DNA from: Ophelia neglecta
Lineage: Eukaryota
Assembly: GCA_965285935.1 (NCBI GenBank)
Contig: OZ260665.1
Span: forward strand, 49,786,001-49,850,000
Length of the DNA stretch: 64,000 bases
Direction of reading: 5' to 3'
The notes below the pieces were generated by a model. That model saw nothing but the letters and a program-made list of their open reading frames with translations. It had not been told where the DNA came from and searched no databases. Shown piece by piece: positions 1 to 33,632 of the stretch (position 1 is the first letter of the stretch; each line of letters begins with the position of its first letter). The position numbers were made by a program, and so were the translations under genes.

Positions 1-380
1 TGCTGTTTTATTCTCTACTGCTGTTTTATTCTCTACTCTATTTGATTCTCTACTGCTGTTTTAATCTTTACTGCTGTTTTATTCATTACCGCTGTTCGAT
101 TCTCTACTGTTGTTTGATTTTATATTCTACTGCTGTTTGATTCTCTTCTCCAAATGCTATTTTATTCTATTTTCCAACTGCTCTTGGAATCTCTTCACCA
201 ACTGCTACTCCAGCAACTCGTCCCAAAATCCTCTTTCATACTCTTCTCTTGCTCTTTGATTCTCTTCTCCAATGCTGTTAGATTCTCATCTCCAAATGCT
301 AAATAATTCTCTTAATCACTGCTCTTGGATTATGTCCTCTACATTCTATTTCACCAAATCTTGTCTAACTGCTGTTAGAT
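1..380. repeat. Degenerate low-complexity tandem repeat (about 18-20 bp unit TGCTGTTTTATTCTCTAC)
   Basis: Unit is seen twice exactly at the window start and then in decaying copies (ctgctgtttgattctct, ctgttagattctca). Intronic to gene A. Confidence 0.75.
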
Positions 381-2269
381 TCACATGTGACAGTACCGCG
401 TCCCATCAATCACATTTTACTTACACAACTTCTCCTAGCACCCAATAAGTAAATTCCCCTTTATGAAATACGTAGACTGCTAATTAAATATAGTTGCATC
501 TGCCTTAACGAAGAAATGTCGAGCGGCCAGTGTCGATTATATCATCAACTTTTATCTTCTAACTTTTTAACCAACAAATAAATATTTGACAACAGCTGAA
601 CTATATGATTAGTATATGTAGGCCTATTAGCTGGCAAAGAAACTTGCCCCTGATAAAATAACATTAACAAGCATCGCTGCATCAACCTTTTGATTTTTTT
701 ACCCATGTGACGTAACATGTGATGGATTAACCCTGATTTATTGAGCTCAAACGTCAAAAAGATACTCAAAGCAATGTTTCATTTTGCAATATACTATTGC
801 CTGTAGCTGGCTCGATATACCTGTGCCATTCCCTTGGAGCAACTATTTAGAAAACTAAGATGAAGCTACCAAGAGATCTCTCATCTCCTGCGAAGGTATT
901 TAAGAAGCGAGCTGAATTTATTACAAATGCCAGCGGCCTACTCGCATTAATAGAATGCTACGAGGGAGCGGGATACTTCTCTGAGGCCGGGATGAAAACA
1001 ATGCAAGCAGACACATATATACCCAGTCTTCCGAGATAACAAATACTGTGAATGGTAGGCAACTCAAATAAAACTTTCTATAAACTTTTTTTCTGGACCA
1101 TCACATACACATACAATAGTAAATGTACGCGTCTTTAATTTAAGTGCAGGAAAGGCAAGCTCATACAACAGTACCCTAGTATCTAGATGAAGCTTGATCC
1201 ATTAATTTTTCAGTGTGCTTCGGGAAACTCGAGATTGTGGTTAAATGTGCAGGTGCAATGATTATATTGGGTAATGTGTGTTTCCTTGATTTAAAGAAAA
1301 CGGATATTTCCGTAGTTTTCGCAAATTATGGCTGCTCTCGGAGGAGTTCCTCTAGCGAGTGATATAACGATTCCGTATACATAAAGGGGATTACTTTTAA
1401 AAGCTAGGTCTACTGAAGAAAAGTGTTATATAATCACCCCGATTTGTGAATATTATGTGAAACTTGGATGAAACATTTCTCACAGTTAAGCAGTAAGTGG
1501 TCTGAATCGTAAGAAATGTACGGGATTTATTACACTGCCATAAATGCCAGTAAAGGGTAACGTGTTAGCAGTTTACAGACTAGATATTGCGCAGAACTAC
1601 TTCCATTTTTTTGGCAGAAGAACAGTCACTGTAGGGCACAGTGGTTCCATCTGGGGAAGACATGGCAAAACATTAGAAGTTGCAGCGCCAAAGGCTTAGG
1701 CCTACTGTTGCCAACAGATGTCGCCTTTACAAGTAGTACAAAAATGTCTATCATTCGTTTTATTTCGATGTGCTGCAGGTTTAACCTTATTTTGTTGGAT
1801 ACATGCCACCGGTAACCATTCAACATGGGGTATCTATGCCAGATATGTCCGCAATATATATTAGCAGACATGACCATTCCACCTCAAGCACCAATAATAA
1901 TATAGCCCATAAGTCGTTGCGGTTTAGTACAAATTCGACATATTGGTATATTTTTGTATCATGTTCGAGGACACCAATAGATACTAAACCCTACTTTATA
2001 ATAGGTACAGGATAACTACATGGTTGCCAAGATAAGTTTTTCATGTGTATTTATTCCTGTGAATATTTATTTTGGCTAATTTAATAACATATTGTCACGA
2101 TGGGTTGTTTCAATTAGCCAGCTTAACTTGTTCTCCTGCGTTGAAATTTTAACGAATTTTAACATCACAAAACAGTATTGTGTTCACCACTATCATTTTA
2201 TTAGGCGGGATTCTTAGAGTTGTAAAAGACAAACCGACATGAGTGAGTTTACAGTATATGGAGGCTTAC

Positions 2270-2418
2270 CTTTTTATCCTCAGAGAGACGGACCCGCCTG
2301 CGGATTTGATGATATCCATCGCCTCCTTGTGGAGCAGTTGTGCGCAATCATGGTTCTCCACGGCGACCAGCACGTCCCCTCGCTGTAAGGTGCCATCTGC
2401 CGGACTCCCCACAAATAC
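2270..2418 (-). CDS. Gene A (Zasp/PDLIM-like PDZ protein) coding exon 2: C-terminal half of the PDZ domain; gene continues beyond the left edge
   Basis: ttacag|GTATTT acceptor and AG|gtaagc donor; 149 nt, phase 0 to 2. Encodes VFVGSPADGTLQRGDVLVAVENHDCAQLLHKEAMDIIKSAGGSVSLRIKR (GSPA..L..GD, HxEA PDZ pattern). Confidence 0.93.
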
Positions 2419-2824
2419 CTGTAAACAGTATGAGAATCGTGTAGAGAGGGTATAGACCAATGAATATTGATACCAACGATTTTATTGCTAATGACATGTA
2501 CAGGTCATAACATCCATCCATTATATTACACCAGTCCCCGAATGCGTCTACTTATGTTGCCTCCCTAGAAATTAAACAGTTTTAAAAATACGGATTACTT
2601 GTTCCCTCTTAACTTAAGCGTTAAGAGGGAACAGGGTTGCGCGAAAAATTATATTTTTATTGCATATAGGTGTAGCTCACAAGCTCCCCAGCCGTATGGA
2701 CAATATTGATTTCCATGACCTGTACGGTTTAAAAAAAAGGTATTTCAGTAAGATCGTCTATAATTATCAAGTATCCAGGCACCAAGCCGGAGTAATCATG
2801 ACTTAAATGGTTCGATGGATTTTC

Positions 2825-3055
2825 GTTATTGGTGGGCCTTTGATTTGTGTTATTGGTGGGCCTTTGATTTGTGTTATTGGTGGACAGTTGATTTGTGTTA
2901 TTGGTGGGCCTATGATTTGTGTTATTGGTGGGCCTTTGATTTGTGTTATTGGTGGGCCTATGATTTGTGTTATTGGTGGGCCTTTGATTTGCGTGATTGG
3001 TGGGCCTTTGATTTGTGTTATTGGTGGGCCTTTGATTTGCGTTATTGGTGGGCCT
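2825..3055. repeat. 24-bp minisatellite GTTATTGGTGGGCCTTTGATTTGT, about 9.6 copies
   Basis: Head-to-tail units starting at 2825, 2849, 2873 ... 3041 with few substitutions and no spacers. Confidence 0.97.
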
Positions 3056-4674
3056 GAAATATGGGATATGGTTATATTGCCAGCTAGGTGACCAAACCCG
3101 GAAATATTTTCTCAAGTGAGGAAGCATGTACTTCACCACCTAAAGAGTTTCAGACTGCATAAATCATGGGTTAACCAAATCAGAAAACCCTGCGTTGCAT
3201 AAACATAGGGCATATCTTAATTACTATAAGTCTTGAATTTACGCCATCGGCTAAGATGGTGATTAAGTAAAACAGCTGCTGCTGCCGATGGACGTATTAA
3301 ACCGCAGCTCCCCAATGTTTTTGATAACAACACCCATTAGTTTAGTACAAGTTCTTACGCCGAATGCCTGCTTTTGTTTTTATTGCATCCAAGTTTTAAG
3401 TTTTTATCAGCGCACAACTTTATTGACATAAAACATGGACGTTCAGACAAAACAACCGTTGACTTACACCGCATTCCAACTGCGACTCGTATTACTTTTA
3501 CCACCATCATGAGTATTAGAAATCTAACTGCCATCCGCAGTTATTCTTACCACCCGTCAGGGCACATAGGGTAAAATATCTGTTCTGAGCCACGAGGCAT
3601 CAAGGCAACCAAATCGACTAAACGTACACTCCTGAAAAATGGCAGCTTGGATTATTTTGCCAGATATGATCGATGTTGGATAAATAAGTAAAGAAGTGGT
3701 CTGATATTTCAAAAGTCCTGTGTGAGGGGAGGGGTGTCTGTGTGTCTGAGTGTGTATGGCTGTGTGTGCGGGTGTGAGTGAATGAAACCACATAAACTGC
3801 CATACTGCCCGTGGGGTAGCAAATGAAGTCTTTTGAGTATTTGACCATATCATCATAGAAAAATTAATCCACTGCCAGCATTAATACTCCCATAATGCTT
3901 TATTCAGGATGTGGAGACCATCATTTAAGATGGGCTATAAGCGTTCAGTCGTATTTTAGTATAAAGGCCTACTTCTAAGAGACCTGCTCGTTGGCGCACG
4001 CGCAGCGCCGGAAGGATGTTTTCTTGGCACTTGAGGTACCATGACACCGCAAAACAATGTTAAAAAAGTAACAAGCTAAAACGAACTCCTTGTTACTTAT
4101 CATCACCATCCTAAAGCCCTGGAGCATTATGCCAGCAATACACTGTATACTACAGATGTTAAAACTCCTCGCGCCATATGGATCCAGGGAAGATTTATTT
4201 ATCAGCTTGGACCACATGTAACGATTTTAGAGAGCAATCAGTATTACAAATAGTGTAGACTATAAGCCGTGATCCAGCCAATGAAATATAGGCTATAGGA
4301 TCTGTCAGAATTAGCCTACATGCCAACAGGCGGTGATTATACTAATACATGTCCACGTTAGCCTGCTCTGGCCCGCTCCGGTATTAAAGTAATGTACTCA
4401 GTTACTTCACCGGCCTAGACATCAGCCAAAGAGAGTACCAGTTAAATAAAGGATGCTAGGGAATCCTCCGACATGATTTCCAATTACTAGACCTCCGGTA
4501 TTCCGAAAAAAAATACACCGAAAACAGACTGCCGACTGCAAGCAGCTGTCTAACCCTGCGATCGTCTCGTTTTATTGAAGAAGACGAAAATGCATAGGCC
4601 CATTCATGTAGAACCATTTGGTGTTGAAATCTTATGCAAATTATAGTTCGCATATTACATACCCTTATTGTAGG

Positions 4675-4800
4675 GTTAAGTCAGGTAATTTCGCGCATCG
4701 CGCAAAGTTCGGCGCAGTAAGTCGCCTTATTCCGCTCAGGTTGGGTTATAGCCATTTACTGTGCCGAATTAAACGATTTATTTAAATTGCTTGACTTAAC
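4675..4800. mobile_element. Palindromic MITE-like element (126 bp)
   Basis: Outer inverted repeat GTTAAGTCA (4675-4683) / TGACTTAAC (4792-4800), plus a symmetrically placed inner inverted repeat TTCGGCGCAGTAA (4708-4720) / TTACTGTGCCGAA (4756-4768). Confidence 0.55.
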
Positions 4801-7800
4801 ACTATGCGCGGAATAAATCAAGAAAATATTAAATTGGGTGTTACGATTGAGGTTTGTTAAGCACAGTGGGAGTGATCAAGTTATTGATCCATAGTAAGGC
4901 ATTGTTCCATAAAAACAAGGATGATATCATATGACTTGTCCAAAGAATCATTGTAATAGCCTGAAAGAGTCCTTTATCATCTTGTACTGATAGAACCCTG
5001 CTTCAGTAACTTAATCATTAACATCACTGCCATGCATGAGTAGATGCGAAAACGTGTAAAGTCCTGATAATAGATCGTCTATAATTCTCAAGTTTGCAGA
5101 CGCCAAGCCTGAGCAATCGTGAATTAAATGGTGGGTCGTGGTCAAAAACACGAAATAGTCATTTATCTGCGTAATTAGATGGCAAATTAGTTTGTAGGCC
5201 TGATAACGACAGGGACAACGCAACGAATGATAGCTGGAAGCAGCCTTCCAGTTATCTCCCTGCACGACCCCCAAATCTCTTTGAGTGTAACCCCACACGT
5301 TTGCGCATTAAGTATTGGCCAATGCATGACAGTGGGTATTCCTATAGTTTTCCACTTTTCAAACGTGTTGTTGTTTATAATTTATCATTAATGGATGCCA
5401 GCCTGACAAGAGTTTTCACCTGAGATGGATCACCACCAGCCCGAGATGTAGGTGTTAATACAAAGATCTACAGCCAGGAACTGATACTCGAGCATAAAAC
5501 CAGGTCAACCCCGGCCCGGCGTTCTTGTACTCGGAAAGAAATCTACGAGATTAAACTTAGGCCCACAAAATACGACGGATCGCGTTAAAACTCACTGTTT
5601 GATCATTCAATCAACTTGGTTCCTCATCGGAACAATGCATAATTAACATAAATGTATGCGGGGCCAATCAGTTTCAATGAAGTAAATAATATGATGCAAT
5701 ATTCGAGAATGGCAAAACCAGGTGTGAAAGACAAAAAGTAATAAGACAAATCAGAAATATGGACGATTTAGTACGTGCATCACAGTAACAGCATTTTTAC
5801 TATTGCTACACTAAGACAGCTCGGCTATAGACTACTGCGACTACGAAATAATTGTGGTTGAAATTTTGCTGGAAAGCAACCACTACTTCGTCTCTAATGT
5901 AGGCCTACAGGTAGGTAAGAAAGTATGATATTTAGCCTCCAGGTTGTACATTATACTCTGACACTAGGGTTCTATTTTAGGGAAACTATTTCTAACCAAA
6001 CAAGAAAAGGTTGGATTCTGATATCCATTGCCCAGAACCCAAGGCTGTATACTCTGATGTTCATCATAATTACTAACCAAGAACACATTTGAACATATAG
6101 GTCAGGGAGTCTGTATTGCAGCCAAATTTGTATAAATGTGATAAACCTCATGATAAGAATTGACATTTCACCTGACAAGGTAAAGGGAAAAACACCAATA
6201 AGCGTTAGAATTGACCGAATTGTGGTAGGAGACGCAGAGAATTGAATTCCACAGGAAGTAGCGAAAGGTACGAGAAATCATTCTCTAGGCGCTTTGTCAG
6301 CTCAACTCCTGGCAGGAAATGTAAACTGTCTGATGGTTCCCTTATTACATTCCAACAATGCCAGTTTAACGTGTTCAACGATTCTCCTGGCACTTGTTCA
6401 TAAGCATGTCTACCGCGTATCATTTCTTTCAAATGAGGTCAGATTTCTCTGAACGTCAGCAATAAGCAACCAACTGTCAATTAGTTTATTGCACAAAGGA
6501 AATAGATTAGCGCGATGACGTTAAAGCGTTTGAAACAAACTACATAGTATAATCAAAAGAAGAAAAGAAACGGCGAACAAATCCTGCACATTTGTTAGAC
6601 ATCTAAAACCCGCCGTCTGGGTTTAAACGCATTAAGCGTCGACAGACAACAGTCGAAACTGGCAAAGCTAGCTCCGGGCCCATTATTCCTTTCTTAAACT
6701 CCGCCAAAATACTAACTCTTAAACTGAGTCAGATTCCTGCCTGGATGCCAGCCAACACAGTTTTTTCTTGCCAAATGCATCTTATTGTTTATTCGAATTA
6801 TCGTACAGCTATTATAATAGGCCTACTGCTAACCTTTCTTCAATCCAACGGTCCTTTTTCAATGATACCAATGCTCTTATTATCTGGACATGATCCTAAC
6901 AGCAGGAAAAACAAGATGGAATTAGCAGTGGACCATGTTCTGCAAGGCCTCCGCACTGCTGTTGTTTTCCTACGCCCATTGCAGGCCAAAGTTGAGTAAT
7001 GAGGTCATGGTCATTTTTGGTGGTCATTTTCACAGCAAGGTTATCACCAAGTCTTTATTAATAACTCATTTGCAGTACACGCATAGGGATTTTTGCTTTG
7101 GTTTTGACCTAAAGTTATTAAAAATTAAGCCTACAACTTGGGAAGCTTTTTTTACAATTAGGAGCCGGGTTATAACCAGCAATTACCAGTCATCATGCTA
7201 TACGTGTAAAGACTAATCATGTACAGAAGGCGAGGCTTGTCATAGGGGAAAGGCCAGCCCTCAGAACTGATAAACCTTCCGGCGCCTCCACATTACACCC
7301 AGCTTCGCAAATAAACATTGCGGGCTTGACGGTAAATGGGGCAACAGTCCGCCTACTACGGCTCTCCGATAAACAAGAGGTGTTTGTGCTGTTGATTTGA
7401 GCAGCAAAGAAGAATTCAAAGATACCCGTAAGAATGGGTTTTAATTTACAACATTATTTGTGTGTAACATTATTACATAAAATGTATAGAAGCAAAAATG
7501 TTATCGAAAACACTTTTCTAGCTCGTTGAATTAGTTATCGTCTTTATCCTCCCTTCTAATTATTATTTTTTTAAATCCCCAGGTAATCATTTTTTTATCC
7601 AAATGGAAATACAAAACACATATAATGTTATTGTATAATACAAGTCCTGGCTGATGGTATAATGGTGTAACCGAGATCTTTATGTTCCAATATTTGAGAT
7701 CTTCCTAACAGGCTGGGACTTCCATGGCTCATCCCCTCTGTCTTTTATTGGCGTGAATAAATTAACAAGTTTAAATTTTTCCGCTTTTTACGACAACCCC

Positions 7801-9330
7801 GAGGTTTTTCGTGATATAAATTGCCAATATTTCCAAAAGGAATGGCCTTTACTTTCTTAATTTTAGCAACTGATAAATGATTAATAATATGGTCCTCCGT
7901 CGAGAAGAAATGATATAATGAAGTTAATTTATATGATATCATTTAAGTGTTCATTCCCAGTCCTGCACACTATTTTGTGCCCATGGTTGTTCGGCAATTT
8001 CATTTTGAACCGCGTGCACTATGCAATGGAATAGGTGTGCATTATTATTCTTTTCATTTAGAAAGTACAATAAATTTATTAACCGGCTCTCCATACATTG
8101 TCTTGTGTGAACTTGCTTGGATAAGGCAATGCACTCGAAGATCTTCTTTCAGAGATCGGCATCTTAACAGCTGGATTTTCGAGGTTCCCCCGGAATTCTT
8201 ACAAACCAGGTTACACCAGAACAAATATCACGGGGATAGGTTTGCGCCCCCATATTGGTTTATTATGGAACTTAACCTTCCCGATGTCAGTAACTGAAAG
8301 GCAATTGATTCGAAATCGAATGGATGGAAATTTGCCGGAATTTATTAAAAAAATCCAACGATATAATCTGGAGCTCGCATTTATTAGTTAAAAAAAAACG
8401 CTGCTTTTGTCACTGCGACAACTAAACCGATTTCGAGTATTTCATTTTATATGAATTGACCGTTTGTGTGCAACCTGCATGATTATATAACTTAGTCAAA
8501 TATTTTCCTTTTTTAGGTAAGCCTACTAGAGAGTGAACCTTGCTCATGGGGTCCACATTGTCCTTCTCGGGACATCCTTTGCTCTGGTACGTAATACCCT
8601 CAAAACACACTGTAATCACCCATGACCTTGCAGTGGCATCGACGAGAAAGCCGAGGACACAAAAAGTACACAAGCAGCGACTACAGGCGTGTTTTCATAG
8701 GCGGGATTCCTCGAAATTATATCTGTTGATATGATAAGAGACACGAGATGTCGTCTGGTCTTCATCACATGGCGGCAGACATCTGACCCAGAGTATATCA
8801 CAGAAACAGAGAAGGACCAACAGAAATAAGTCAACTGTCCTATGAAGAAATCACTGGTTATTAAGCTTTATAACGTCTTTTTATAATGCATTTGTGAACA
8901 GGCCAAAATGATTAATGGAAATAAATCACCGACCTACTAGTTATTTTGGCCTGTACACCCTAGACAGACCAGGGTCTCCAGAAATAGCTAACCATGATCC
9001 TAGGTACCTTGCAAACATTTGGAAACTCAGCTGAAGTTTGGATTCTTCGCTGTTGGCCAAAGTATTTTGCTAATGAAAAGTCCTGGAAGTGGCCTTGTAC
9101 ATCCAACTAATAGCACGTACCACATACAGCCTCCCATTTAACAAGATAAGCTTACTTAAACAAGGCATAGGGATTAATGATCAATGAGATACAATTGTTT
9201 TCTATTACAAAAGCACCTGTTTAAAATGGGATGTTTAGCAGTCATTTCCTGTAAGAAGTAATCTATATTTCTGCCAATGCCAGGCCTATAAAAATTTCGG
9301 TTCAAGTAAAGAAAAGTAACGTCGACCTAC

Positions 9331-9447
9331 CCTCTGAACGGTGAGGGGGAGTTTGAAGTCCTTGCCGCCCGTAAGACGGAAGCCCCAAGGGGTACTGAGG
9401 GCGTCCCTGTGTACCCGGACCTGGCGTTCGCTATATGGCCCTGTCAT
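9331..9447 (-). CDS. Gene A coding exon 1: N-terminal half of the PDZ domain (missed by the ORF track)
   Basis: gccATGa start; MTGPYSERQVRVHRDALSTPWGFRLTGGKDFKLPLTVQR (39 aa), then AGG|gtaggt donor in phase 0, in frame with exon 2418-2270. PWGFRL is the ALP/Enigma/Zasp PDZ signature. Confidence 0.94.
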
Positions 9448-9691
9448 GGCGGGACTGGCTCTCTCGACGAGATCTAGTCCTCCATTATTCGACTAGAGAG
9501 CAGTCTCGGCCATGCGTCCTTCCGCAGCTAGACCGACTCAAGGAAACATGAGTTGCTCCTACAACGAGGCTCCACGCCCGCTTGCCTCCCTCTCCCGACC
9601 CATCCAGGAACTTTACTTAGCTCTGTACACCGCCCGAAAAACGAGAGGGAATGCTGGCAGCCACACTCGGCATGCTGTATGCTATTCCAAG

Positions 9692-9748
9692 TTTATAAAT
9701 ATACCCACCTGTTACATTGAAGCACTTTGCAGTATTGCCTATTTTTAA
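9692..9748 (-). promoter_or_regulatory. Candidate muscle-type proximal promoter of gene A (TATA, E-box, MEF2 site)
   Basis: TATAAA on the minus strand at 9697-9692, E-box CACCTG at 9706-9711, and CTATTTTTAA (matches YTAW4TAR) at 9739-9748; about 250 bp upstream of the ATG. Confidence 0.5.
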
Positions 9749-12700
9749 ATTGTACATTACTCACATTTGCACACTTCATAGATCTATGTGCACACATGAA
9801 TATATAGTTGTTTTTCAAAAGGGTTTGTTTGCTTTGTTTGTATAGTGATCTTGGATTTTTTCCTTAAATTACTGTTTTACTTTGCTCTGATATATGTACC
9901 AAATCTTTCTGTTGCCAGGGTGCAGCTCGGGGTGCTGCTTTCGTCACGGATTCAATAAAACTGAAACCAACGTTATGTTTTTCATGACTTTTTGTTTTGA
10001 ACCTTTAGAAGTGCAACAAGTACAAGTTGATAAAAATGGCCCTAGCATCCCGGATTAGAGTAGCATACAATTCTGAGCCCAAGCCACAGAAACAGTTGGT
10101 TAGATAACACAGTCAATTTGTTTGCTGCTGCCATCTGGTGTGTAGTGTCGGTTCGTTTTCATTATAGGGTATATAACCTAAATCCCGGCTGCTCGTCCAG
10201 AGGTTGTCATGACATACTGTACATTTATAATCTAAACTGTTCAGCTGCACTTTATTTGCGCAAGTTCCCCGAGGACATGTATTCCCAGTAAGTCCCAGTA
10301 AAAAAGTACCGCAAGACGTTCTTGCCCCATCTCTCGGGGTCTCCTGACTTGTGTATCGCGAAAATATATATGTCGGTAAAATTTAATCTGGCGTCTTTTC
10401 CGAATTATCGACGTCGCGGTAAGTTTTTATATGCCTATCTAACATGTGACTGGCCCATAGGCCAGCAGGCAAAGCATCTCAGCTGAATGTTAATGATAAC
10501 ATGTACATGGTGTCCCATTATTAAGGAATGATTCATACACCAACCATCCAAAATATTAGTATAGCAAAACTTGATAATGTTTTTGCAACATTGAAGCGCA
10601 ACCAACGCAATTTGTAAATCGAAATTAACTTCTTTTCACGTTTTCTGAAATATATGCTATAGTCCTAAGGTTTTTGTTGTTTATTTTACGCACATTCGCA
10701 AGTACACTTTTAATCATAATCTGACACCAGTTTCTATGTTCCTATCCCCAGCGGAGTCGTATTGGAATATCTTTGGACCGATTTCATAAATGTGACATCA
10801 ATTGTTTGCATTTTCAAGATTCCACTTGTTGAAAATGAAATTGCTGTCAATGATCATACTTTTTCTATGTTAAAGTGTGCCGTCGGAACGGAATTATTTA
10901 ACACGTGGGGGCCCTACTGCATTATGCAGACGCACCACGATTTCACATTTGAGGCAGTCAAAGTTGAATATTAAAAATGTTCATTTGACTGCCCTAATTT
11001 CAGTACAGATTTTATACTGTTGTTTATAATTATGTTCTTGTCTATAACCTCGTTTAAGAAAACCTTGCAAGGAAATTCCATGTTTAACACATTCATAGAA
11101 CAAGTTATTTCAGGAATCAATCTGAGAATAAAGTTTCCAAGGAATGGCCATGGGACTAGGTGGTCTATAATACTGTTTCCTCTATATGTGCAGGTTGTTT
11201 TAAGACTAAGACAAGTCAATCCATACAAATGACATGACCTGTTCATTTCGAAAAGTTATTTTAGAAAAGAGCCATTTCTACTTACCTTAAGGGGCGGAAT
11301 ATTTCGCAAGTATGCCTTTGGTTTTCTGTGTCACAGTGTCATATCAGTGGAGCTTGTGTTGTTTTCTCTGCAATTCATAGAAGTAATTGTTTAATATCAT
11401 TACCTGACAATGCAAGTTAAAAGATTTGATTCTTTTGTTATGATATTCATATCTCTTTGCATCAAACTAAGTGACCCTAGAAACAAACGTGTTTGCAAAA
11501 TATCATGGGGCCAACAACTAACTTTGATCTCAAAGCGCCTAAAAATATTGGATATTAATTAATCCGACCTGACCCATGCCATTCCATAGCCACCAATCGA
11601 CCCTTATTGTTTCTTTTAAGCCAGTTTTATGAAAGACAGGCCAGTTTGGATTGAGGATTTTGTGATACGTTGCGATGATAATACCATTATCCTTTCACGG
11701 AGTTTGTTTGCAACATAGACATATAGAGGCCTCAATAATTAGATAGATTTATGCGTCGAGGCCAACACAATGTTCAAATATAGGATTCGATACTTCTGCC
11801 CTAACAGGCTTGTGGTGGCAACTTTGGGTTAAATGGGCAGTGAACATACAAGGAGAAAACTTGGAATTTGCTACAATTTGAAACAAAAACTGCCCCGATG
11901 TAGTCTCACATTCTTCCAAGGTTAGCCGAACAAGTGTTTACAGAGGAGTTAGATTTCATGGGCATTGTCATGGATCAAGGTCGCCAATTTTGGTTAAATG
12001 CGCGTAAGACAATATTTGACTTCACATGCAGTTCCTTTGCAACAATAGGCCTGACTGTAAATTGGTAGAACGTTTTTATATATCTGGTCTGGAACTGTGT
12101 GGAAAGATTTTTTTGGTGGTTCGGTGGAACAATCACTATAAATGTCTAAAGTGACTTCGCTCTTTTCTCGTGGATGTTCATTTTATCATAATTATAACCT
12201 TAAAGTTATCCGCTTGCAAGACAATTTTGTTCTCCCTCACTAATGTATTGTTTTTATGACGTTATCGTTCCTGCCTACGTTCGGATTTACGCGCGGGAAC
12301 CTGGTCTACATGTCTGGTAGGTCCATCCATGTGATGCTTGATCGAAACTCCATGTTTAATATAGAGGAGTATTTTTTCCATACTGCATCGGAGTTCACTT
12401 CATAAACAGATGTCACCATTTTAGAAAACACGAAGCTATCTCATCAGGAAATACATTAGCTAGAGTTGACTTGTTTAAAGATAAAGCCATCGATACAAAT
12501 GAATTAACCTTACATAATCATTTACTTCGAAAAATTATTATAAACGATCCCCTGTAAAAAACACTGTTATAATTTTCAACCGTCTATAACATTCACGCAC
12601 GATATACATTTCAAATGTGGGATTTTCGGGACGCCGGAAAACTGTTGTTCTCACTATACAGGTTCTCTGTCAACAGATGTGCTAGGTCGCATCGCACCCT

Positions 12701-14368
12701 TATTGTAAAGAAAGCAATTCTCTACTTAACGAAATGTTATACTGCACCCTAGGCATGTAGAGTTCACCAGGCAACAAACCATATATCATCAGGGTTACAT
12801 GAAGTAAGAAGATCCCTCAAAGAAAACTTCTCTGTATAAAGCAGTATTATTAGATTTTATTTCTCCTTTATTATACGTCAATTTGTTGTTTCTTCCAATC
12901 ATTAATGCTATTCTTATTGAATGAAATTTAATGTGAAAAAATGCAACAAACTTATTTGAAAAAGCCTGCCTTCAATACTAACATTGGGCTAAAAGAACCC
13001 CGGGGGCACAGCCTCCCCCCCCCCACCCCCACCCCCACCCCACCCGACACGCACACAATTCATATGCCAATACATCATTTTTAGCCTAGTTCGAATGGCA
13101 AATCTGAAAAGGTAAATAAAGTGGTTTACGCAACTGTTATAGGTGGGAATGGAAGTTTTTTTGAAATACCGACTACAGAAAGCACACAAATGCGCTCTGG
13201 GACAAAATGGTTCCTGGCAAAATAGGCAAAATATGTGACAAAATGGTTCCATGTTTTACTCTTATGATACGTTTCTAACAAGAAATAAACTTAAATCGCA
13301 AGCCCTCGATAAAAGAAAGTGACAAAAAAGCAAGTGATCTTCAATTGACTTCCAAACTCTGTCCACGTTATCAAATTATCAGTTCGATAAACATTATCCT
13401 GACTGTGATGTAAGAGGCCACCTAGCTGTATGGGGTAGCCTTAGGAGCCCCCGTTGTGGCGAAGAGGCCCCCGGGGCCTTTTCCCTAAATACTATGTCAA
13501 ATGTGAATGACACAAGATTTTTTACATCGAATAAGATACATAGGGCCATGACCCTTTTGGCACCATTAGTTTGTGACAAATCATCGTTTGCTCATTTCGA
13601 GGCAGGGATTATATAGTTTTCAGCACTTGTAATATCGCCTATATCATTGTGACATATATTGTCATTTTCATAAATTAAATCCATATCTAAAAATCATATT
13701 AAATCATATTCTAAATCCAATGAAAAAGTGTTTTCTTTCCCACTTCCGATCAGATTTCTGGCCTTGAGGTTTACCAGAGGTGACTAATCCTGAAACGGGG
13801 ACACATTCACCCGAGTCAGAAGTCAGGAGTGGGGGCGTCTGTGCCAACGACGCCGCATCAAAACAGTACAAGACTGAGTCTAAGCAGGACTCGTGGGCTG
13901 GAGCTAGGAAATAACTGTGTACAACTTCTCTCAGCAGCCTCCATCTTAGCCAAGTAACGTTAAACTTGCGGCAGGCAATCGAGGATCGCCTTACCGATCA
14001 GCTGGTAAACTGCGTATACTTGGGATTTATTTTTGGCCCGACTTCGAAAAGTTGTGCAGTGAGTTTTAGTGTTGTGCACTGACATCTACAAGCAGTAATC
14101 AGTGCAGTGAGCCAGCAGTCAGGAGTGCTTGATACCCAAGGCCTATACGTCAACTTCTGGTCGATCCACACCTTTCTTCGCGGAACCACCATTTTGCTTT
14201 CTGTGGGGAGCGAAATCGCCGGTCATAAGCCGGCCATCCCTACGTGATCTATTTGTCCTGGTTGTATACAGAGGATTTCAAGTTTCTTTAATGACCACCG
14301 GAGGAACCTGTGGGATATTCTGACCAGATATTAAGTTTTTTAGGACATTCTAGGATTAGTACCACACG

Positions 14369-14470
14369 ATGACGGAAACGATCTGGCTACAGCGTCCTAG
14401 CGGGGATGTGCCGTGGGGGTTTCGACTGACCGGCGGCAGGGACTACCAGCAGCCCCTAACAGTACAGCGG
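14369..14470 (+). CDS. Gene B (Zasp-like PDZ+ZM protein, no LIM) exon 1: PDZ N-half
   Basis: MTETIWLQRPSGDVPWGFRLTGGRDYQQPLTVQR, then CGG|gtaggc donor, phase 0. Confidence 0.95.
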
Positions 14471-16849
14471 GTAGGCTCATTAAAACTCCTTATTATAACT
14501 ATGGTCACTTGCTTGTTGAAGGGTAAAATTAACCTTCCTGGCACCGAGCTGGTTTGATTTCTGTATGCATGACATGTGCATGTTAGCCCAACGTTTCAAT
14601 AGGTATAATCTGCTCCAAATTTAACCCTCTGTAATAATTGTAATAAATCAAATTAAGTTGATGAAAGACGGCTTTTGATTACACAAGCCGTGCATTTATA
14701 GAACTTGTTTTTATTCATCACATCATCCCTGGAAGACCGCGTTTAGACTATAATATTTGCCAAGACCATTTGACCTCCATAAGGAACAAATAGCAGGAGG
14801 TTTATATCGTAACATATTTGTTGTTGATTTGTTCCTTGGTCACTGCTTACTTAGATAATGCATTAATTCAATGTAAACATTGGTCAGATTTGAGGTACTC
14901 TAGTCTTTTTCTGTCCCTCCAATACCTCCACGACCATGGAGCAGAAGACTGTTGAGTTTTAGGTGAATTCTAGGCGAGGCTAGACCTATTTTTAATCCAG
15001 CTGGCTGAATCATTGCGTGGCTGTCAGATTCCATCTCAGTACAGTCTGATTCAGGTCGTGATGGTTTATAAATCTTCTGTTTAAAAACTATCTCTGATTC
15101 ATCGCCCAGATAGGGAACAGTTGCTGTCATATTAGTCAGTATGCATTGAATGAAATACCGACATTATATTTATAGCCGATAGGATATGAATTTGATAAAC
15201 ATGAGATAGATTTGACCAAAGACATGCTCGTCTAGTGTGATATATCAGCTATAAAATTAACCTCTAGTGCTTCGAGGCTTTTGAAATTTCAAGACAAAAG
15301 GTACCTCAGCAAACAACATTTCCCCAAAATGTCTAATCTTTCATTCACTCATCGCGCCCCTATTCTGTCTGATCTTCCCACCACTTTTAATAGATTTTTT
15401 TACATAGTTTGGGGATTAAGCTTCGCCCCGTAGCCGCACTAAATTGTCTGGTGATGAGCGCGTGATACAGATTAATGTGTTATGATGTCAAGATAGACAT
15501 ATTTTTCTAACTTTTCTGCTATGATCATGTGAACACGGCCTATATTGTGGTTGAACAGAAAATGTTCTATATGAATCGACCCAATGGAGAAATCATCCAC
15601 ACGTGGTACAAGCAGGCTCGTCTCATTGTGTAGGCCTGTAGATGGCTTTAATTTGCCCTTGTCCCAAAGATTCCCAGAATAAGTGTAAATAGGTTAAAAG
15701 TATTATTTCAGTGATGAACGAAATGGAATGAGTTAATCGAAACGATCAATCAACAAAAACCGGCATTATCATGGTTGATATTTCTTTTGCTAATTGAAAA
15801 TGCGTAATACCATCCTTCAAGATAAAAATACCTATAATGATGAAACTTTCTAAGACATAAGTAATCAGATTTTTTAAGTGGCACAAATGTGACTGTTGTA
15901 CCTTTGGCAGCACAAACTCTCCACCAGCACATGTACTCTTAGAGTTCTTACTCTTGCAAACCAGACAATTTCTGGATGCATATACATGCAACTGTTGACG
16001 CCAGTCTCCACCTTTACAGGTTTTGATATGTATCCGATTTACTTATTATAATTACTGTTATTATCATCAAGCCGGTTTTGTTGTGCTTGATCATACGATT
16101 TAACAAGGGCGTTTTAAACGGATTGTAAATGCGACGTCAAGAATGAGGATCATCGAGTGTTACAAGTTCCTTTACAGAAGGTTAACATTATTTCAATATT
16201 TTATTTTATTTTAATACATTTGCCAATGCCATTTTTATGCCAATCTCCGGCTTTTCCCACCGTCTTCTGCAAAAACTAGCTATCTGTGTCGCTTGGTTTT
16301 GTGCCTATCAGGGGATATAGTGCGTGATGTAATGACTTGGTTAACCATACTGCCGCATATAATAGGGAGTATAAAAAATTTCACAACCATTAATGTATAA
16401 AACACAGAGGAGCAAATGTAGTAGCACACTGAAATCATGCCAAGAGGCAAGTTATTTCTTGTTGACTGTTTTTAAAGTGTTTGTGGTAAACGGATCTCAA
16501 TCCTTTGATCATTATCAGTTAATTTGTAACAATTCTCGTGTGCTCATGCTGGCTTTTGATTAAAAGTGACAAACTGCATACACACAGCATGAGAATTTCT
16601 CCTTGCCTCTACTGTCAATTGGAATGATTCTGAATTGTCAAACCTGTTCTCCGTTTGGAAGTCCTAAATGATCCTAACGCTCATACAATAGGGATTAAAA
16701 TTCTCAGTTTGACAAGGGACATGAACATCAGTAGAATCATATATTGGCATTAGAAGCAATGTCTGTGCTAATCATGTCTTATAGTCTTAAAATGACCTGA
16801 CTGGAATCTTAAAAAATAAACTCTAGATATAGATGTTTTTATTTAAGAG

Positions 16850-17150
16850 AAACATAAGAAACAACTTGATCAACATAAGAAACGACCAACTATAACACGA
16901 TAGGAAACAACCAAATATATCAACATAGGAAACAACCAAATATTTTAACATAGGAAACAATCGAATATATCAACACAAGAAACAACCAACTATGTCAACC
17001 TAGGAAAAAACCAAATATATCAATACAAAAAACAATGATATCCAAATAAGAAATAACAAGATCAACCAGAGATGTATATTCCGGTATATACTTCTCTGAA
17101 TAAACTTACGAAACAATTATATCACCATAAGAAACGACAAGACCAATTAT
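16850..17150. repeat. Degenerate 25-bp tandem repeat CAACATAGGAAACAACCAAATATAT, 7 or more copies
   Basis: Units at about 16871, 16896, 16921, 16946, 16971, 16996 and 17021, with decayed flanks. Confidence 0.85.
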
Positions 17151-20100
17151 TCACTGTGAGATACGAAATAACCTCTTCGTATAGACATCATTCTCTGGGT
17201 ATTTTCCAACACAAACTGAGATAGTCGTGAAAACTTCCAACAATCATACTTATTAAAATCATACATGATGCTTATAATGAATTCGATATTGAGTGAAACC
17301 CGTACGTGGGCGCTCTATGCCAATGTGGTTAGCCAAGGGTGGATGACACATGAAAGTCATAAAGGTCGTTCAGTATAGAAGAAACGTATTTTTTCTTGGA
17401 AGATGGTGTTCTCAGCAAGACCATATATCAGCAAGATAAACAAATTGAAAGGCTGCGTGTCTACTGTAGATAAAAGGCATATATCACCTGAAACCATGCA
17501 GGAATCAGTTTGTGAGCGTCCACTGCACGGACAATAAGCAAATTGGTGAACCATTAAAAACAATTACCTATACAGGTAATTTTCAGTAACGTTACTGTTT
17601 TATTGTTCATTTTTGCTAAACATTTATTTTGGCTTAATGTACGTAACTGCACAGCCGCACATTGTACACCGACTCCCATACTGTGGCATTTGTAGCGGCA
17701 AAAATAACCTAATCTTGGATACATTAATAGTTCAGAGAGCTGCGTAATTGTTTATCTGTAAATGTACTTCCTACGCAAAACATACAATTATCCTGGATTC
17801 GTCCCTCTGCTCTATTTTGGTCCACGTACATGTACAAGTTCACATTATCTAGTAGTGCGGTAAAGACAGCTATCAAAGACCACATGTTAGTACCGTGCGC
17901 CCGTCGATAAAAATAGGCTTGATTGGCTCTTTAAAAAACGTATCTCTGTTTCTTTTAAAAAGTGTCTCTGCCCTAAATACAATTGACCCAGACAAAATGC
18001 TTGTATTGTTTACGTACCGGAAGTAATTATTAAGTGCGTTAAACGACAAGAATGGCCAAAAACGACTGAACGTGTTAAAACGCGCTGTCGACGAGTTTCA
18101 GAAGACATGTGGACCTAAGTTTAAAGATGGAGATTTTTGTTGTTTTATTTCACTTGAGTTATATAAGGATACTATGATATTCTTTCAGTCTGAGATGCCT
18201 TGGTGAGAGACATGACGTGTGTTTTCTTGTCATCTTGTACTGCTAGCTATTGCCGCAATTATTTGAGTGACTCAATTGCCAAGAATGTCAAACATACCAT
18301 TTAAACATTCGACACATTCCTTCTTTGTACAATCATAATCCTTACAATTGTACCTTTTGTCCAAGTCGAATTCAACAAATACATTTCTAATTCAGACCAG
18401 AACAATATATATTTTCTCAAATCACTTTGTTGAAACATTAAGAGTACAGAACAGTAAACACTTTGCACATACATATGACTAGACTCCTTTGTTTATTAGT
18501 TCTTCTTTAGGCCACATGCCTACTTATCAGACATTTATATGGAATGTCATTCAGCTAAGTATAGTTGGAATAATTAAACTTGTTTTCTGCTACTTTCTTA
18601 TTAAATTTGACCCAATTGAAATCGGATATTTCTATACGTTCTTAAAGTCTTCTTATAACTTTCTCATGCATAAGATTTCCACTTAAGTGTAGAAATCTTA
18701 AAATTATGACTTCTTTACCTCTTGAAAGGTTAATTTTACATTGCAACAAAGTATTTTTATATGCAATAATATCAGTTATAAGACCTAATCACAGTAACTT
18801 TGAACATGCCGGATGCATGATTGGCAAAGGCTTTGCCAGGGTATAATCGTTTTAACCACAGGGACCATTTATAGTGTCTGTAATGTTTGAAATTTAATTT
18901 CAGGTTTTCAAATCCTTTTTTGCACATATATGCACGATAACTACTTTATAATATGCCTTCTTTTAAATATCAGCAGAGTTTTGGTAATTGAACTCTCCAG
19001 CAGTAGCATTGTTGATTCTGAAATTATTTGATGCAAGTTCAATTGGCCGTGATTAGTTAAGCAAAATGATTTCAATAAACAAAGTCCTGGTGATGGAAGA
19101 AATCAGTCAGGCCCAAAGAAGGGGTGGATAAATGTGTTCGGGTGACCGACTCTAACTAATCTAACTAATTCCAATATCCACCCATTTTACTAGAATTAAT
19201 ATTTTGAAGAAATAATCACCCACTTGTGTTTAGTAAAGTTGTTAATAATAAGAATCCTAACCTATAGATATTATTTAATTTCTTCTAAAAGAGAGTTCAG
19301 ATTATGTAAATTTTGGTTGTACATGACAACAACGCTTTTAGAAATAATCAACATCAACGATTAAGATCGAGCCACTATCATGATTTAATTAACTGACAGT
19401 TACTTTGTATGCGCATTGCTGAAGAAACATATGCAAAAGCCTCATCACTCAAAACTACTGTAGGCAGACGGTATTCTGACGGTTCCTGCCACTGTTTTTT
19501 GTCATATTATGCTTTAAGAAGATTAAAGAAATAGAGAAAATGAAGTTTGTTTCCAATCCATTCATCTAATAAGAATATAGATACTATTTCCTGATATACT
19601 AATTTCCTAAATAATTTGGTGTTAGAGAGACATGAGAAGTCAAAATACACATCAGGAATTCTGCAATAATCACAAATATAAGGTACTATTAATTAAAGTT
19701 ATTATTTACTACTATGCTAAACAATAGAAGTCTAACAAAGTCTGTTAGAAAAGCCGTTGTCAGATTGTGTAGTGTGTATACTACACGATATCTGATTGAA
19801 GCAGGAACGTTTTACATACACTAGTTACTGTTCCCCTCGACCACAAAGGCCGAAGGTTACACATTTATATAGTGTGTTGACGTTTGATACCATTTTTAGC
19901 CAGAACAGAAAGCCTATGACTAATCTACTACTATATCAAATACATCCTGATTAGTTCAAATGGTGTAACAAGTATAATATAAGAAACTTGTATTTTCAAG
20001 TAGTTTTGATATTTACTGACCCGAATATGTAGTGCTATTATTTCGTATGTGACTTTAATAATGACCAGCCAAATAATATGCCAGTGACACTGATTATGCT

Positions 20101-21054
20101 GACTGGTAAAGATTAGATATTCAACAAGAACCTGTTTTATATCATTTGGCTGATTCCCATATACGGAAAATCCTTGCTAATTAAGAATTTGATTTTGTCA
20201 AAAATTGGTGAACTACAATCACTACAAACATTGTGTTGAAATCCACCATATTCCTTATGCTATATATATCACTGGTTTATTTTTCATACCGCCCAAGTTG
20301 CATATAATACTTATACATATATATAGTATGAAGGTGCTTGGCAACAATAGACATGCAAATAACAATTACCTTTGCGTACACAAGACACTTTTGATTACTT
20401 TCATTCACAAGAAAATGGTTTTGGCACATTGGCAACAGGTTTTTGACTAAAGGAAATTAATGACACATTTAACATCCGGTACGGTGATAAACTCGATTGC
20501 CAACTGCCAACAAAAGAAATGCCCCATTTTGAAACGCCAATGTGTGGCAGATTGGTAAAACCGGTTGTGGATGCCCGGCAGACAAAGCAACATCATTACA
20601 TAAAGATAGTCCATTAGATCGGCCCGAATTATCAGGAGCTTTGTGTCAGAGGCCTACACACGCCTATACATTAACGCAATCTCCTTAACAGTGAATACAC
20701 TTGTAGTGCAAAACGTAAAGTTGAAAAGGAAGGCTATGTGAGCCTTGTCAATATAGGTCTTCTCGTCCTATTTTTCAATAAGGATTATCTCGTACGTATT
20801 CTTCCAGCTTGACTTTTCATTTTAATTTCACAATTTTATAATTCAAACATTTATTAAGTCTTTCAAAGCCAACTATTATAATTTGAAAGCTGTCCATCAA
20901 CAATCTTCAGCGGCTGGTTTAAGAACGCCCTTGTAAACTGACATACGGAGAAATAAAAAACATGCGTGTTCATGACATTTTAACGATACAAATGTCATTG
21001 TTATCATTTGATTTCTTCGAAAATGAAATGACATGATATGAATCGTATTTACAG

Positions 21055-21203
21055 GTAACGCCCGGAAGTGTAGCAGCCACAGGATTAACACAGGATGACG
21101 TCATACTGCGGATCGGAGACTCGGACACTAACGCGCTTACGTATGCACAAGCTATGGAAGTCATCAAAGAATACGGCAACACGCTACAGCTTTGCATATA
21201 CAA
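21055..21203 (+). CDS. Gene B exon 2: PDZ C-half (missed by the ORF track)
   Basis: tttacag|GTAACG ... AA|gtaagt; 149 nt, the same length and phase as gene A exon 2. VTPGSVAATGLTQDDVILRIGDSDTNALTYAQAMEVIKEYGNTLQLCIYK. Confidence 0.93.
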
Positions 21204-27737: not shown

Positions 27738-30099
27738 GCGGGGTGGCGGACAAGGGTCTCCGGCACAACAGGTAGCGGGGGCACGTCCCTCTAACCAAAC
27801 TTCTGGCACGCATGGTTTGTTCGAAAACATGTACAGAAGTTCGGAGGCCGTGTCACGCAGTTCGCCTGACCAGCAGCAGGGGATGTCCGCAGGCTCGGCT
27901 CACCCCCAATACCAGACCCAGCGATCAATTGACCCCTACAAGCCCAGTGCACCTAAGCCTTTTATGTCACAGTTCTCCCATGATGGTTACAATGTTAGTA
28001 ATGTTAACTCTTCTGATTCTCGGCCGATCAATACTCACTCCTACCTGGGATCTACCCCTGATTCTTCCTATCCCATCCACCCCCAATCTTCTCTCAACTC
28101 TTCGCAGTTCTCTCAGTCTCCTTACGGAAGCACAGTAGGCTACTCCGACGATTATAATGCACCCCAATGTGACATTCAGCCACCATCTTACAAAGATGTA
28201 AACTCAAATAGAGATGAGGTTGCTTACTCGGTAGGTGAAAGTAAGTCCAAAGAAATACCCGTACAGTATGATGGCTCTGGGTTTTATCAGCGCGCACAGC
28301 CTGCCCCATCTAGTACCATCTTACCCACAAATCAACCTCCTAGGGGAGCCATTGTTGACCAGCAGCAAATGTACGATAATAGCCAACTGAATGAGCAAGA
28401 TAATCACAGAATGGAACAAGAGTATGCAAAAGATCAAAATAACTATGAACAAGATCATGTCCGTGAACAGACAACAGAGGGTAATTATCGTATTTCTCAG
28501 CAAGGACAAGGTTACAGCCAGCAAAATATACCAAATCAACGGGAACCTGATCATTTTAGTGGATTGTATAATCAAGGAGGACAGCAAAGCTACAGACAAC
28601 CTGGGGACGGGTTAGCAACACAATACCAGAATATGCAGCCAGAGCAGAAAGAGGTCGAATATCATGCCTACAGGCAGCCCGAACAGGGCAGGCCTCAATA
28701 TCATGTTCGACAAGAACAGGATAACCCACAATATCGTGGCTACTTGCCACCGGAAGCATCGCAGCAATATCATGCTTCCCAGACCCCATTATCACATGGG
28801 TCAGATTCCGGTTACCCTTGTACCCCGTCAATGTCTTCATCAGTAAGCGAGCTATCTGATCACTCTTCTGGCCACTCCGAGAGCCGCCAAGGGCCACAGC
28901 AAGCCACAATTACTGGCAGCTACTCATTTGCTCCTACCGATGAAACAATTGAATTTCATCCTGTCATGGCACATCAACAGGCCAAAGAGCCTGACATGTT
29001 TCAGCCTGTTCCAATAGTTGGGAGCCCAGGTGGTCAGAGTCATCAAGCTAGTTATGGCCTGCAAAGGGGTATTCAAAACCGAGGTGACCCAATTCCCCAT
29101 ACCCAAAATAGTTACGAATCGGCCAATGAGTCTTCTCCTGTAGAAGTATATGGAACAGCTATATCTCACTCTCCAGTAGAACCAAGAACACCCGATGAGA
29201 CATTAGAACAGTTTGGGCCTCCAGTAAGCCATGAACCTTCAACTCCCAAGTCTAGTGAGTGTCCACTCCCTCCTCCTCCTCCTCAGCCATATCCAGTCGG
29301 TGAAAGTCAAGCTCAGCAAGAGGCATTTTCTGGTTTGCAAAGACAACAATCACTTCCCCTTCCGCCACAACCACCACCGCTACAAACTCAACAAAGTTAT
29401 CATGGGTATCACAACCAAGATTTTCCACCACCGCCAACACCTGATTCTCCCAGCGTTCCCTCGGCCCCGATGATGCGAGGTGCACCTCCACCGGCTCCAC
29501 CTCTGCCTGACTCCCAGCCCCCCGATTATTCTCCCAACTTAAGCTCGTCCTCTCTAAGCAGTCCCAACCCACCGTCCGCAGATACATGGGCTCCTCCAGC
29601 ACATCACCCCTTAGAACCAAGGAAACAAGAACTAACACTTAATTCGGCATCACCATATGTGCCCTATAGCCACCAACAGCCAGCAGTTCCCCATTCTGCC
29701 AATACACACCAGCCTGCCAGTGCCTATATGACTAACGTACATGATCCTACTTCAGGACAAGCTGCTGGTGTTCCCCCTAGTCCCGGACAAAGTTTTTCGC
29801 CAACTCTTCCCTGGATAAAGTCGGCTTCTACCCAGGACCCTAGTTTAGGCATCCCTGAAGTGTCCGCCCCTACTCTTTTGGAGGAGAATAGAGCAGACCC
29901 GGCCACTGCTGGGCCTTTTGATAAGGCTCCAGCGGATGACGCCCAAACTAAACACGGGCCTCCTCCATCGGCGCCACCCCCGCCGCCGCCGCCACCTCCC
30001 CCACCCCCTCCATTACCACCGAATATATTGTCTGCACCAACAAAATCGTGGAAAGACAAAAACAAACAAGCTGAAAGCCCCAGCTACGAGCCAGTCAAG
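27738..30099 (+). CDS. Gene B exon 3: giant 2362-nt Gln/Ser/Pro-rich low-complexity exon (possible short form 27738-27771)
   Basis: tcttcttgttttcag|G acceptor in phase 2, open through the 784-aa ORF to AAG|gtaatg (phase 0). An internal CAG|gtagcg at 27771 is in the same phase. Confidence 0.88.
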
Positions 30100-31275: not shown

Positions 31276-31787
31276 CATCAGCCCTACCAGCAGGTCCAAC
31301 AGCCAACCAGCCCAGGAGGAACAAGGCTGCAACAACAGCTCTCTAACATGGAGATAAACGGACCCCCGAGCTACAACAAAGCTTCCTCTAGTCCCCAACC
31401 TTATGGGGGCGGGGCACCGAGCTACCCTGGCCCCGGGCAGACCCAATACGGAGGGGGAGCCCCAAGCTACCCAAGCCCGGTGCAGGCCCATTACGGTGGA
31501 GGCCAACAGAGCCCTCACAGCCCCTATGGTGGGCCCCAGACCCCGGAGGCTCCAAGTTATGTGGGTAGCCAAGGCCCACAGTATGGGTCTCCTCAGTCAC
31601 CGCAGAGACAGGGTCCACCTTCTCCTAAGAGACTTGGCCCTCAGAGGCATGGACCTCCTGAGCCGACAGAACATCAGGTACCGGACGCCGTCGTGAACGC
31701 ATTTGCAAAGAACCCCGAAAAGAAGCCATTTGCTTACGCTCCCGATATGAGTAGTATTCAAGCACAGAGGGAAAAGGTCAGACGGAG
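31276..31787 (+). CDS. Gene B exon 4: G/P/Y-rich repeats and a KKPFAYAP motif
   Basis: ttgatag|CAT (phase 0), in frame with the 147-aa ORF; ends AG|gtaagc (phase 2). Confidence 0.9.
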
Positions 31788-31898: not shown

Positions 31899-32126
31899 AC
31901 CGCCCAATGCGCATATGCCTCGGTACCAGGAAGCTTTGAACCTTCCTTCTTTTGATGACCGCCCAGTCCACAAACCAAAGGGTGCTACTCAGACGCCGGA
32001 GCAACCCCAAGATAATGCCTCGATGGTGTCCAATATGCAGTACAATACCCCCTTGAATATGTACTCAGAAGACGCTGTTGTTGAAGCATTTGAAGGACAG
32101 ACTGGGGCAAATGTCACTGGTGTCGG
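31899..32126 (+). CDS. Gene B exon 5: ZM (Zasp-like) motif
   Basis: ccttacag|A ... GG|gtaggt; contains VSNMQYNTPLNMYSEDAV, matching the QYNxPxxxYS ZM pattern. Confidence 0.92.
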
Positions 32127-32382: not shown

Positions 32383-32486
32383 ACAGAAGAAAGGAGAGCC
32401 AGATGTGACACAATCGGCGACTTATAGAATGATTCACGGCCTCGACAAGCACAAACCACGCCCTAAAATTGGCCTGCCTGACGAAT
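32383..32486 (+). CDS. Gene B exon 6
   Basis: cattgcag|A ... T|gtaagt (phase 2 to 1). QKKGEPDVTQSATYRMIHGLDKHKPRPKIGLPDE; SATYRMI resembles the ALP-family SxVYxML linker motif. Confidence 0.9.
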
Positions 32487-33445: not shown

Positions 33446-33632
33446 GTGAGATGGTGGCCATTGCAGACAGGTCAACCTTGCAGAGTCCGAAGTTCAACCG
33501 TACCCACGTCGCATGAAACCAATCGTTTTTATAAGCTAAAAACATCAGGCATAATTATAACAAAGAAGTTGAAGGGTCTCTAAAAATGTCTCTAGCAGGC
33601 TCTTGGGATCATAAGAGATGATTACTTTGCAG

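Follow-up and report, generated by a model that had tools for sequence, protein, structure and literature searches.

Short 'ZASP-like' genes that code for a PDZ domain together with a ZM motif have been known since 2007 in C. elegans, Drosophila and Ciona (PMC1781342). In flies, ZM motifs bind the LIM domains of Zasp52 and forms devoid of LIM halt the growth of the Z-disc; Zasp66 and Zasp67 are given in the same source as insect-specific (PMC6910826). PDZ domains carrying the signature PWGFRLxGG are of the alpha-actinin-binding type (PMC3591300). Here we describe two Zasp-type genes, called gene A and gene B and predicted to lack LIM domains, that lie head to head in Ophelia neglecta, in a stretch of 64,000 nucleotides (nt) of its 762-Mb genome (G000:C8:49,786,001-49,850,000, hereafter the window). 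We lean towards a reading in which both genes separated long ago, their pairing was inherited, and they have been kept together since both use the intervening DNA in muscle.

The start codons of gene A (position 9447, minus strand) and gene B (14369, plus strand) point away from each other, with 4,921 nt between them. Exon 1 of gene A (117 nt) ends in PWGFRLTGGKDFKLPLTVQR followed by the donor gtaggt, and that of gene B (102 nt) in PWGFRLTGGRDYQQPLTVQR followed by gtaggc, both in phase 0. The second exons are flanked by AG and GT, end in phase 2, and score 28.8 and 30.2 bits against the Pfam PDZ model (cut-off 23.2), while the first introns measure 6,912 nt in gene A and 6,584 nt in gene B. 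These coordinates, exon ends, phases and sizes were all reproduced as given in the initial annotation, and its assignment of the two genes to Zasp-type (ALP/Enigma-like) paralogs holds; both have a PWGFRLxGG PDZ domain at the N terminus. The elements are the following:

Gene A intron 2, 1..2269, minus strand: gene A extends leftward beyond the window.
Gene A exon 2, 2270..2418, minus strand: 149 nt; second half of the PDZ domain, with the GSPADGTL loop and His at alphaB1.
Gene A exon 1, 9331..9447, minus strand: ATG at 9447; first half of a Zasp-type PDZ domain, PWGFRLTGG; phase-0 donor.
Interval between the two ATGs, 9448..14368, no strand: 4,921 nt; contains the 5' ends of both genes; candidate shared control region.
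Gene B exon 1, 14369..14470, plus strand: ATG at 14369; first half of the PDZ domain.
Gene B exon 2, 21055..21203, plus strand: 149 nt; second half of the PDZ domain, with Tyr replacing His at alphaB1.

Contigs from three sequencing runs cover all 30 bins of window positions 2000-21500, with no listed piece bridging the entire stretch; they look like genomic DNA from a single sample, which may be the one used for the assembly, and are then not independent of it. Among the data sets listed for window 27700-34200, none was of RNA.

The ancestry of both genes was studied with a PDZ tree of 44 rows and a PDZ+ZM tree of 39 rows, chosen from a full PDZ set of 139 rows; these trees use 88-116 columns and two vertebrate-like rows only, and another, large tree was obtained by a quick method only. 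Gene A belongs to a clade of annelid, brachiopod, chiton, gastropod, bivalve and arthropod rows, supported at 95/89 in the PDZ tree and 99/90 in the PDZ+ZM tree. Gene B falls in another clade (81/84 and 97/93, respectively) with annelid, bivalve, gastropod, nemertean and chelicerate rows, joined in the PDZ tree by those of two hemipterans, aphid and leafhopper. The PDZ domain of gene A is identical to that of Lamellibrachia P0007 at 61 of 86 positions and to that of Lingula P0141 at 49 of 86, and gene B matches Mya P0033 at 50 of 80. Of the nine close homologs of gene A, the only one with a name also comes from the annelid Lamellibrachia. A and B share only 33 of 76 positions, and each scores better against a paralog on C9. 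It is likely, as far as these sequences indicate, that the A and B lineages separated before annelids, molluscs and arthropods parted, and by its place in the trees gene B belongs to a separate, protostome-wide family without a name.

Gene A groups with a LIM-less PDZ-ZM protein of Drosophila nasuta/albomicans (P0225, 'uncharacterized protein'), which we take to be Zasp66; Zasp67 was not identified in the row set. Placing the arthropod A-type rows beside arthropod Zasp52 was rejected with p 0.0135, a weaker rejection than that of A and B as a local pair (see below), and it conflicts with the insect-specific status given to Zasp66 and Zasp67 in PMC6910826.

The head-to-head layout recurs in another animal. 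Metagenome contigs scanned for gene B exon 1 yielded ten loci; seven are too short, and the other three reach over 6 kb upstream. In one of the three, L081, an A-type exon 1 on the minus strand and a B-type exon 1 on the plus strand lie head to head, with 4,500 nt between their ATGs and donors at the same positions. In exon DNA, identity to the window is 78% for A and 71% for B, and the non-coding parts are unalignable; because only the exons align, the animal behind L081 is a distant one. The closest matches of the A exon of L081 are P0136 and Lamellibrachia, and the source is probably another annelid. Sequence records point in the same direction. For instance, B (GFN81968.1) and A (GFN81970.1) of Plakobranchus are two accession numbers apart on records of the same length (2,821,013), and A and B lie on records of equal length in all three species in which both are named (Plakobranchus, Mya and Pinctada); this use of accession numbers assumes that their order is gene order, and orientation is not visible in them. 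The pair is head to head in two animals and A and B are probably neighbours in a gastropod, while in bivalves they share a chromosome, though probably at a distance. The pairing likely goes back to an early annelid or further.

Shared control of A and B is the weakest step in the reading that we prefer. It is favoured by the steady spacing, since the ATGs are 4.5 kb apart in L081 and 4.9 kb in the window although the DNA between them has fully turned over. However, several results weigh against this reading. The window interval and that of L081 have nothing alignable (best E 0.5), and a comparison of the former with L081 and seven other upstream stretches gave no conserved non-coding DNA better than E 0.036 outside exons. 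Muscle-factor sites in the window are at chance (observed/shuffled: MEF2 1/1.08, CArG 1/0.56, E-box 4/2.73); L081 has one MEF2-like site where 0.02 are expected (p 0.017, one of six tests). The gene B PDZ domain has Tyr at alphaB1, where class I binding uses His. With regard to the arrangement in other genomes, which the initial annotation had proposed to check, L081 agrees, but it is the only one of the three informative contigs that contains A: no A exon was found upstream of B in L077 (7.1 kb) or L080 (10 kb), both bivalve-like, with B exons 94% identical to those of Mya and Dreissena. The accession numbers of A and B are about 970 apart in Mya and about 710 in Pinctada. The A model of Plakobranchus is a 386-residue N-terminal piece, and if GFN81969 is the rest of A, the genes of this gastropod are not head to head. 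Finally, the family clusters anyway, as seven of nine PWGF-type genes are on C8, where two others face away from each other at C8:76.66M, separated by about 11.4 kb.

Many of these points would also be expected if A and B were old neighbours by inertia, that is, the remains of an early burst of local Zasp duplication on a single chromosome that were never separated in slowly rearranging annelids, and had no shared control. The crowding of the family on C8, which includes a tandem pair besides the second head-to-head pair, the failure to find conserved non-coding DNA, the absence of A from the 7-10 kb upstream of B in bivalve-like contigs and the non-adjacent numbers in Mya and Pinctada all suit this explanation. 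The steadiness of the spacing amid complete turnover of the interval does not, in a family whose first introns span 0.5 to 58 kb, nor does the likely neighbourhood of both genes in a gastropod. We consider inertia possible, though rather unlikely.

The origin of the pair is a different matter. The initial annotation derived it from an old inverted duplication; the old split and the recurrence of the layout in L081 agree with this, but A and B are not local sisters. In the PDZ phylogeny they fall in separate clades and are not each other's closest relatives, and their union as a local sister pair was rejected by the approximately unbiased (AU) test (p 5.45e-68) and appeared in 0 of 300 bootstrap trees. 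The features initially taken as marks of duplication proved to be family-wide or due to chance. Among the PWGF-type genes of this genome (at least nine, the count being a lower bound), the phase-0 intron is at the same PDZ position in 9/9; exon 2 has 149 nt in three (A, B and the C9 gene) and 152 nt in four others, plus a fifth read by eye. First introns of A and B are only the third closest in length among 36 pairs, gene B being closer to a gene at C8:76.66M (6,584 vs 6,580 nt). A recent, lineage-specific inverted duplication could account for the equal second exons, the same phases, the similar first introns and the identical PWGFRLTGG and PLTVQR stretches, but not for the tree results, for the orthologs in other phyla or for DNA likeness not being found outside exon 1 (the first introns show no meaningful similarity, the best match being 31 nt with E 0.04). 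It was rejected on the AU test and the bootstrap trees, and its probability is close to nil. A deep inverted duplication, from which A and B (and the C9 gene) would descend as sister families of a LIM-less ancestor, with the present layout as the original footprint, has in our opinion somewhat less than an even chance; it concerns origin and is therefore compatible with the reading that we prefer. The betaC-alphaA loop is one residue shorter in 19/20 A and 8/9 B rows and in 0/10 Zasp52/PDLIM rows, and exon 2 of 149 nt is limited to A, B and C9. Both families also share the absence of LIM (pattern in 0/82 A-type, 0/25 B-type and 12/18 Zasp52/PDLIM rows) and an [ST][DE][FYLM] end (50/82, 14/25 and 0/18, respectively), in groups assigned by hand from the large tree and with many rows being partial or other isoforms. 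The AU test did not reject the A+B family clades, with p 0.40 for A+B+C9, 0.24, and 0.13 for A+B in the PDZ+ZM tree. However, of 300 bootstrap trees only 89 contained A+B+C9 and 6 A+B alone, with C9 beside A in 244; the PDZ+ZM tree, rooted on the two vertebrate-like PDLIM rows, joins A to protostome Zasp52 at 94/86; and these trees draw on no more than 89-116 columns. A block duplication linking A/B with the pair at C8:76.66M was not rejected by the AU test (p 0.20, 0.16) but is not favoured, since the genes of that pair have the longer loop and a 152-nt exon. It might also be argued that gene B is a protostome synaptopodin-like gene (fly CG1674 type) and the pair one Zasp and one synaptopodin, as the Synaptopodin-2 type has a Zasp PDZ domain without LIM (PMC3591300) and gene B has a Pro-rich middle. 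This is very improbable: gene B has a ZM motif, absent from myopodin/CHAP, and it is another paralog, at C8:45.0M, that bears a KGVELF..Q..R stretch. The synaptopodin identity was rejected because of the ZM motif and because none of 14 proteins of the A and B types gave a Calsarcin match in a scan with E up to 1.

The other paralogs are diverse. In G000:C8:76,599,000-76,679,000 (L023-L028, L032-L038) there are three PWGF-PDZ genes, a tandem of two on the minus strand and one on the plus strand, the last two being head to head; one has a low-complexity exon of 1,130 codons and one a ZM motif, and two of their PDZ branches are long. A Zasp52-type gene with a PDZ domain, two ZM motifs and LIM exons is located at G000:C8:41,989,000-42,007,700 (L039-L041). 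The gene at G000:C8:44,996,700-44,929,000 (L058-L063, L048-L050) has a first intron of 58 kb, which contains a 1,738-codon open reading frame (ORF) resembling a retrotransposon. Its KGVELF..Q..R stretch is presumably the synaptopodin/calsarcin motif, and this is likely the synaptopodin-2-like gene of Ophelia neglecta. The third gene with a 149-nt exon 2 and a short loop is at G000:C9:40,780,100-40,785,600 (L046); no ZM motif or tail was found within 50 kb downstream, where other genes begin within 10 kb, and it may code for a small protein with only the PDZ domain.

The predicted model of gene A has six exons and 524 amino acids, with an open frame and GT-AG at every joint, plus two additional optional exons that match P0001. 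The protein is composed of the PDZ domain, a low-complexity middle and a ZM motif (38.2 bits, above the cut-off), and stops after GTSDF without LIM. Its exons beyond the window are:

Gene A downstream exons, G000:C8:49783196-49783130 and 49779635-49779311, minus strand: predicted; open frame and GT-AG joints.
Gene A ZM-motif exon, G000:C8:49773785-49773152, minus strand: predicted model.
Gene A last exon, G000:C8:49772851-49772569, minus strand: AM-like stretch, stop after GTSDF.

Gene B covers 14369-49777 of the plus strand in a predicted model with two alternative ends, in which the first two exons are followed by:

Gene B exon 3, 27738..30099, plus strand: 2,362 nt; low complexity, rich in Pro, Gln and Ser; in frame, without a Pfam match.
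Gene B exon 4, 31276..31787, plus strand: ends in the family motif VPDAV..KKPFAY..I..QREKVR.
Gene B exon 5, 31899..32126, plus strand: ZM motif QYNTPLNMYS.
Gene B exon 6, 32383..32486, plus strand: AM-like stretch SATYRMIHG (the AM label is our own reading).
Gene B exons 7-9, 33284..34095, plus strand: three phase 1-1 exons, each with one IPS[RK]SF motif.
Gene B short-form last exon, 34811..34929, plus strand: ends in GCTDF and a stop; form of 1,358 amino acids.
Gene B exons 10-21, 36697..48767, plus strand: twelve phase 1-1 exons with lengths that are multiples of three, mostly with one motif each.
Gene B long-form last exons, 49465-49622 and 49745-49777, plus strand: end in EVTDF and a stop; form of 1,948 amino acids.

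After the ZM motif, gene B thus has 15 phase 1-1 exons, all multiples of three and most with one motif, those of exons 10-21 being IPS+.F or F[DN]E..[FY]L.G. The short end agrees with the ends of P0010-P0013 and P0016; the long-form motifs recur in identical order in P0113 and Dimorphilus P0026, and P0113 likewise ends in EVTDF. The ZM motif of gene B scores 26.7-27.1 bits against DUF4749/PF15936, slightly below the cut-off of 28.7, while its orthologs score above it. As a homolog query, the ZM exon alone scored none of 45 candidates, whereas the repeat profile did find homologs. The best 16 PDB matches of the B ortholog P0011 are PDLIM/ZASP PDZ domains, and the ESM Atlas gave nothing beyond generic PDZ+DUF4749 clusters. 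LIM domains, of which canonical PDLIM/Zasp52 proteins have one to four at the C terminus, are absent from the predicted models of both genes, which stop after TSDF (A) and TDF (B).

Tandem repeats are present in the introns of both genes: 59-61-nt units at window 24159-25045 (B intron 2), 25-nt units at 16856-17060 (B intron 1), 24-nt units at 2818-3055 (A intron 1) and 18-24-nt units at 1-313 (A intron 2). Tail to tail with gene B, a single-exon ORF at window 56435-55872 (minus strand) codes for a dual-specificity phosphatase (Pfam DSPc, E 1e-32) with the active-site motif VYCAKGVNRS. Past the 3' end of gene A, G000:C8:49,757,778-49,771,374 (L010-L012) contains a gene of ankyrin repeats that ends in a SOCS-box-like stretch, besides two alike ORFs of about 250 codons with repeated 'LYH....G.W..G' units, to the left of which a homeobox gene and a receptor guanylate cyclase were labelled by eye.

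By analogy with the fly and vertebrate families, the PWGFRLxGG PDZ domains of A and B would bind alpha-actinin at the Z-disc, and the Zasp52-type gene at C8:42.0M would recruit their ZM motifs through its LIM domains. Since the genome has this LIM-bearing gene, A and B would serve as blocking partners to it, and the LIM-less proteins would cap the growth of the Z-disc as 'blocking' forms. PDLIM PDZ domains bind a class I pattern in alpha-actinin (PMC10754285). The S/T-D-F ends of A and B could, judging from sequence alone, act as class I PDZ ligands docking on Zasp PDZ domains, and the choice of last exon would give gene B either a short or a long repeat tail. The PDZ domain of gene A retains the class I His at alphaB1. 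This His is also present in 13 of 18 other B-type rows, being mostly conserved in lophotrochozoans and variable in arthropods, and P0113 has Tyr like gene B; the ligand choice of the B family may have shifted. More speculatively, and in our estimate improbably, the locus could be a module older than the split of annelids and molluscs, in which one bidirectional region would serve two capping LIM-less Zasps, the alpha-actinin-like S/T-D-F tails would chain onto Zasp PDZ domains and so add to ZM-LIM binding another way for Zasp proteins to oligomerise, and the B tail would set the reach by muscle type.

These observations matter for the fly model of myofibril diameter, in which the LIM-less 'blocking' genes arose within insects. 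Should gene A be an ortholog of the Zasp66/67 type, dedicated blocking genes would date back to the protostome ancestor, and family B would be a second such family. The pair would also provide a compact case, of 4.9 kb, for testing whether Z-disc genes are jointly controlled in the muscle of annelids.

Compared with described systems, the Zasp family and the LIM-less architecture are already known. In an incomplete search of the literature on Zasp/ZM proteins in molluscs and annelids, synteny and bidirectional promoters, neither the A/B pair nor family B was found described. The ZASP-like genes of PMC1781342 have the same two-domain architecture as A and B. In Mytilus coruscus, PDCP-1 (about 70 kDa) has a PDZ domain together with a ZM motif, as in the A and B families; adductor muscle, foot and mantle contain much of it, and it binds actin and groups with Mizuhopecten PDLIM3 (PMC7573561). 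The protein named Mizuhopecten PDLIM3 (P0167) is A-type in our trees. Insect proteins carry the B motifs KKPF.Y and Y.G..IPSRSF and S-D-L/F ends, and we take CG43897 to be the fly member of family B; neither a PDZ domain nor F[DN]E repeats were detected in the dipteran matches P0121 and P0124. Drosophila CG43897 accumulates at the Z-disc (PMC12898291). The tails of A and B resemble the ligands in alpha-actinin (class I) and myotilin/SNX17 (class III), with a hydrophobic end, an acidic residue at -1 and Ser/Thr at -2 (PMC10754285); unlike those of alpha-actinin and myotilin, the putative ligand sits on the PDZ proteins themselves. The human ALP and Enigma genes are also paired inversely on chromosomes, but at the megabase scale and with LIM domains (PMC1781342), whereas A and B are LIM-less and 4-5 kb apart. 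Zasp66 and Zasp67 of Drosophila consist, like A and B, of PDZ and ZM without LIM (PMC3591300, PMC6910826); unlike these genes, held to be insect-specific, the lineage of gene A includes annelids, brachiopods and molluscs.

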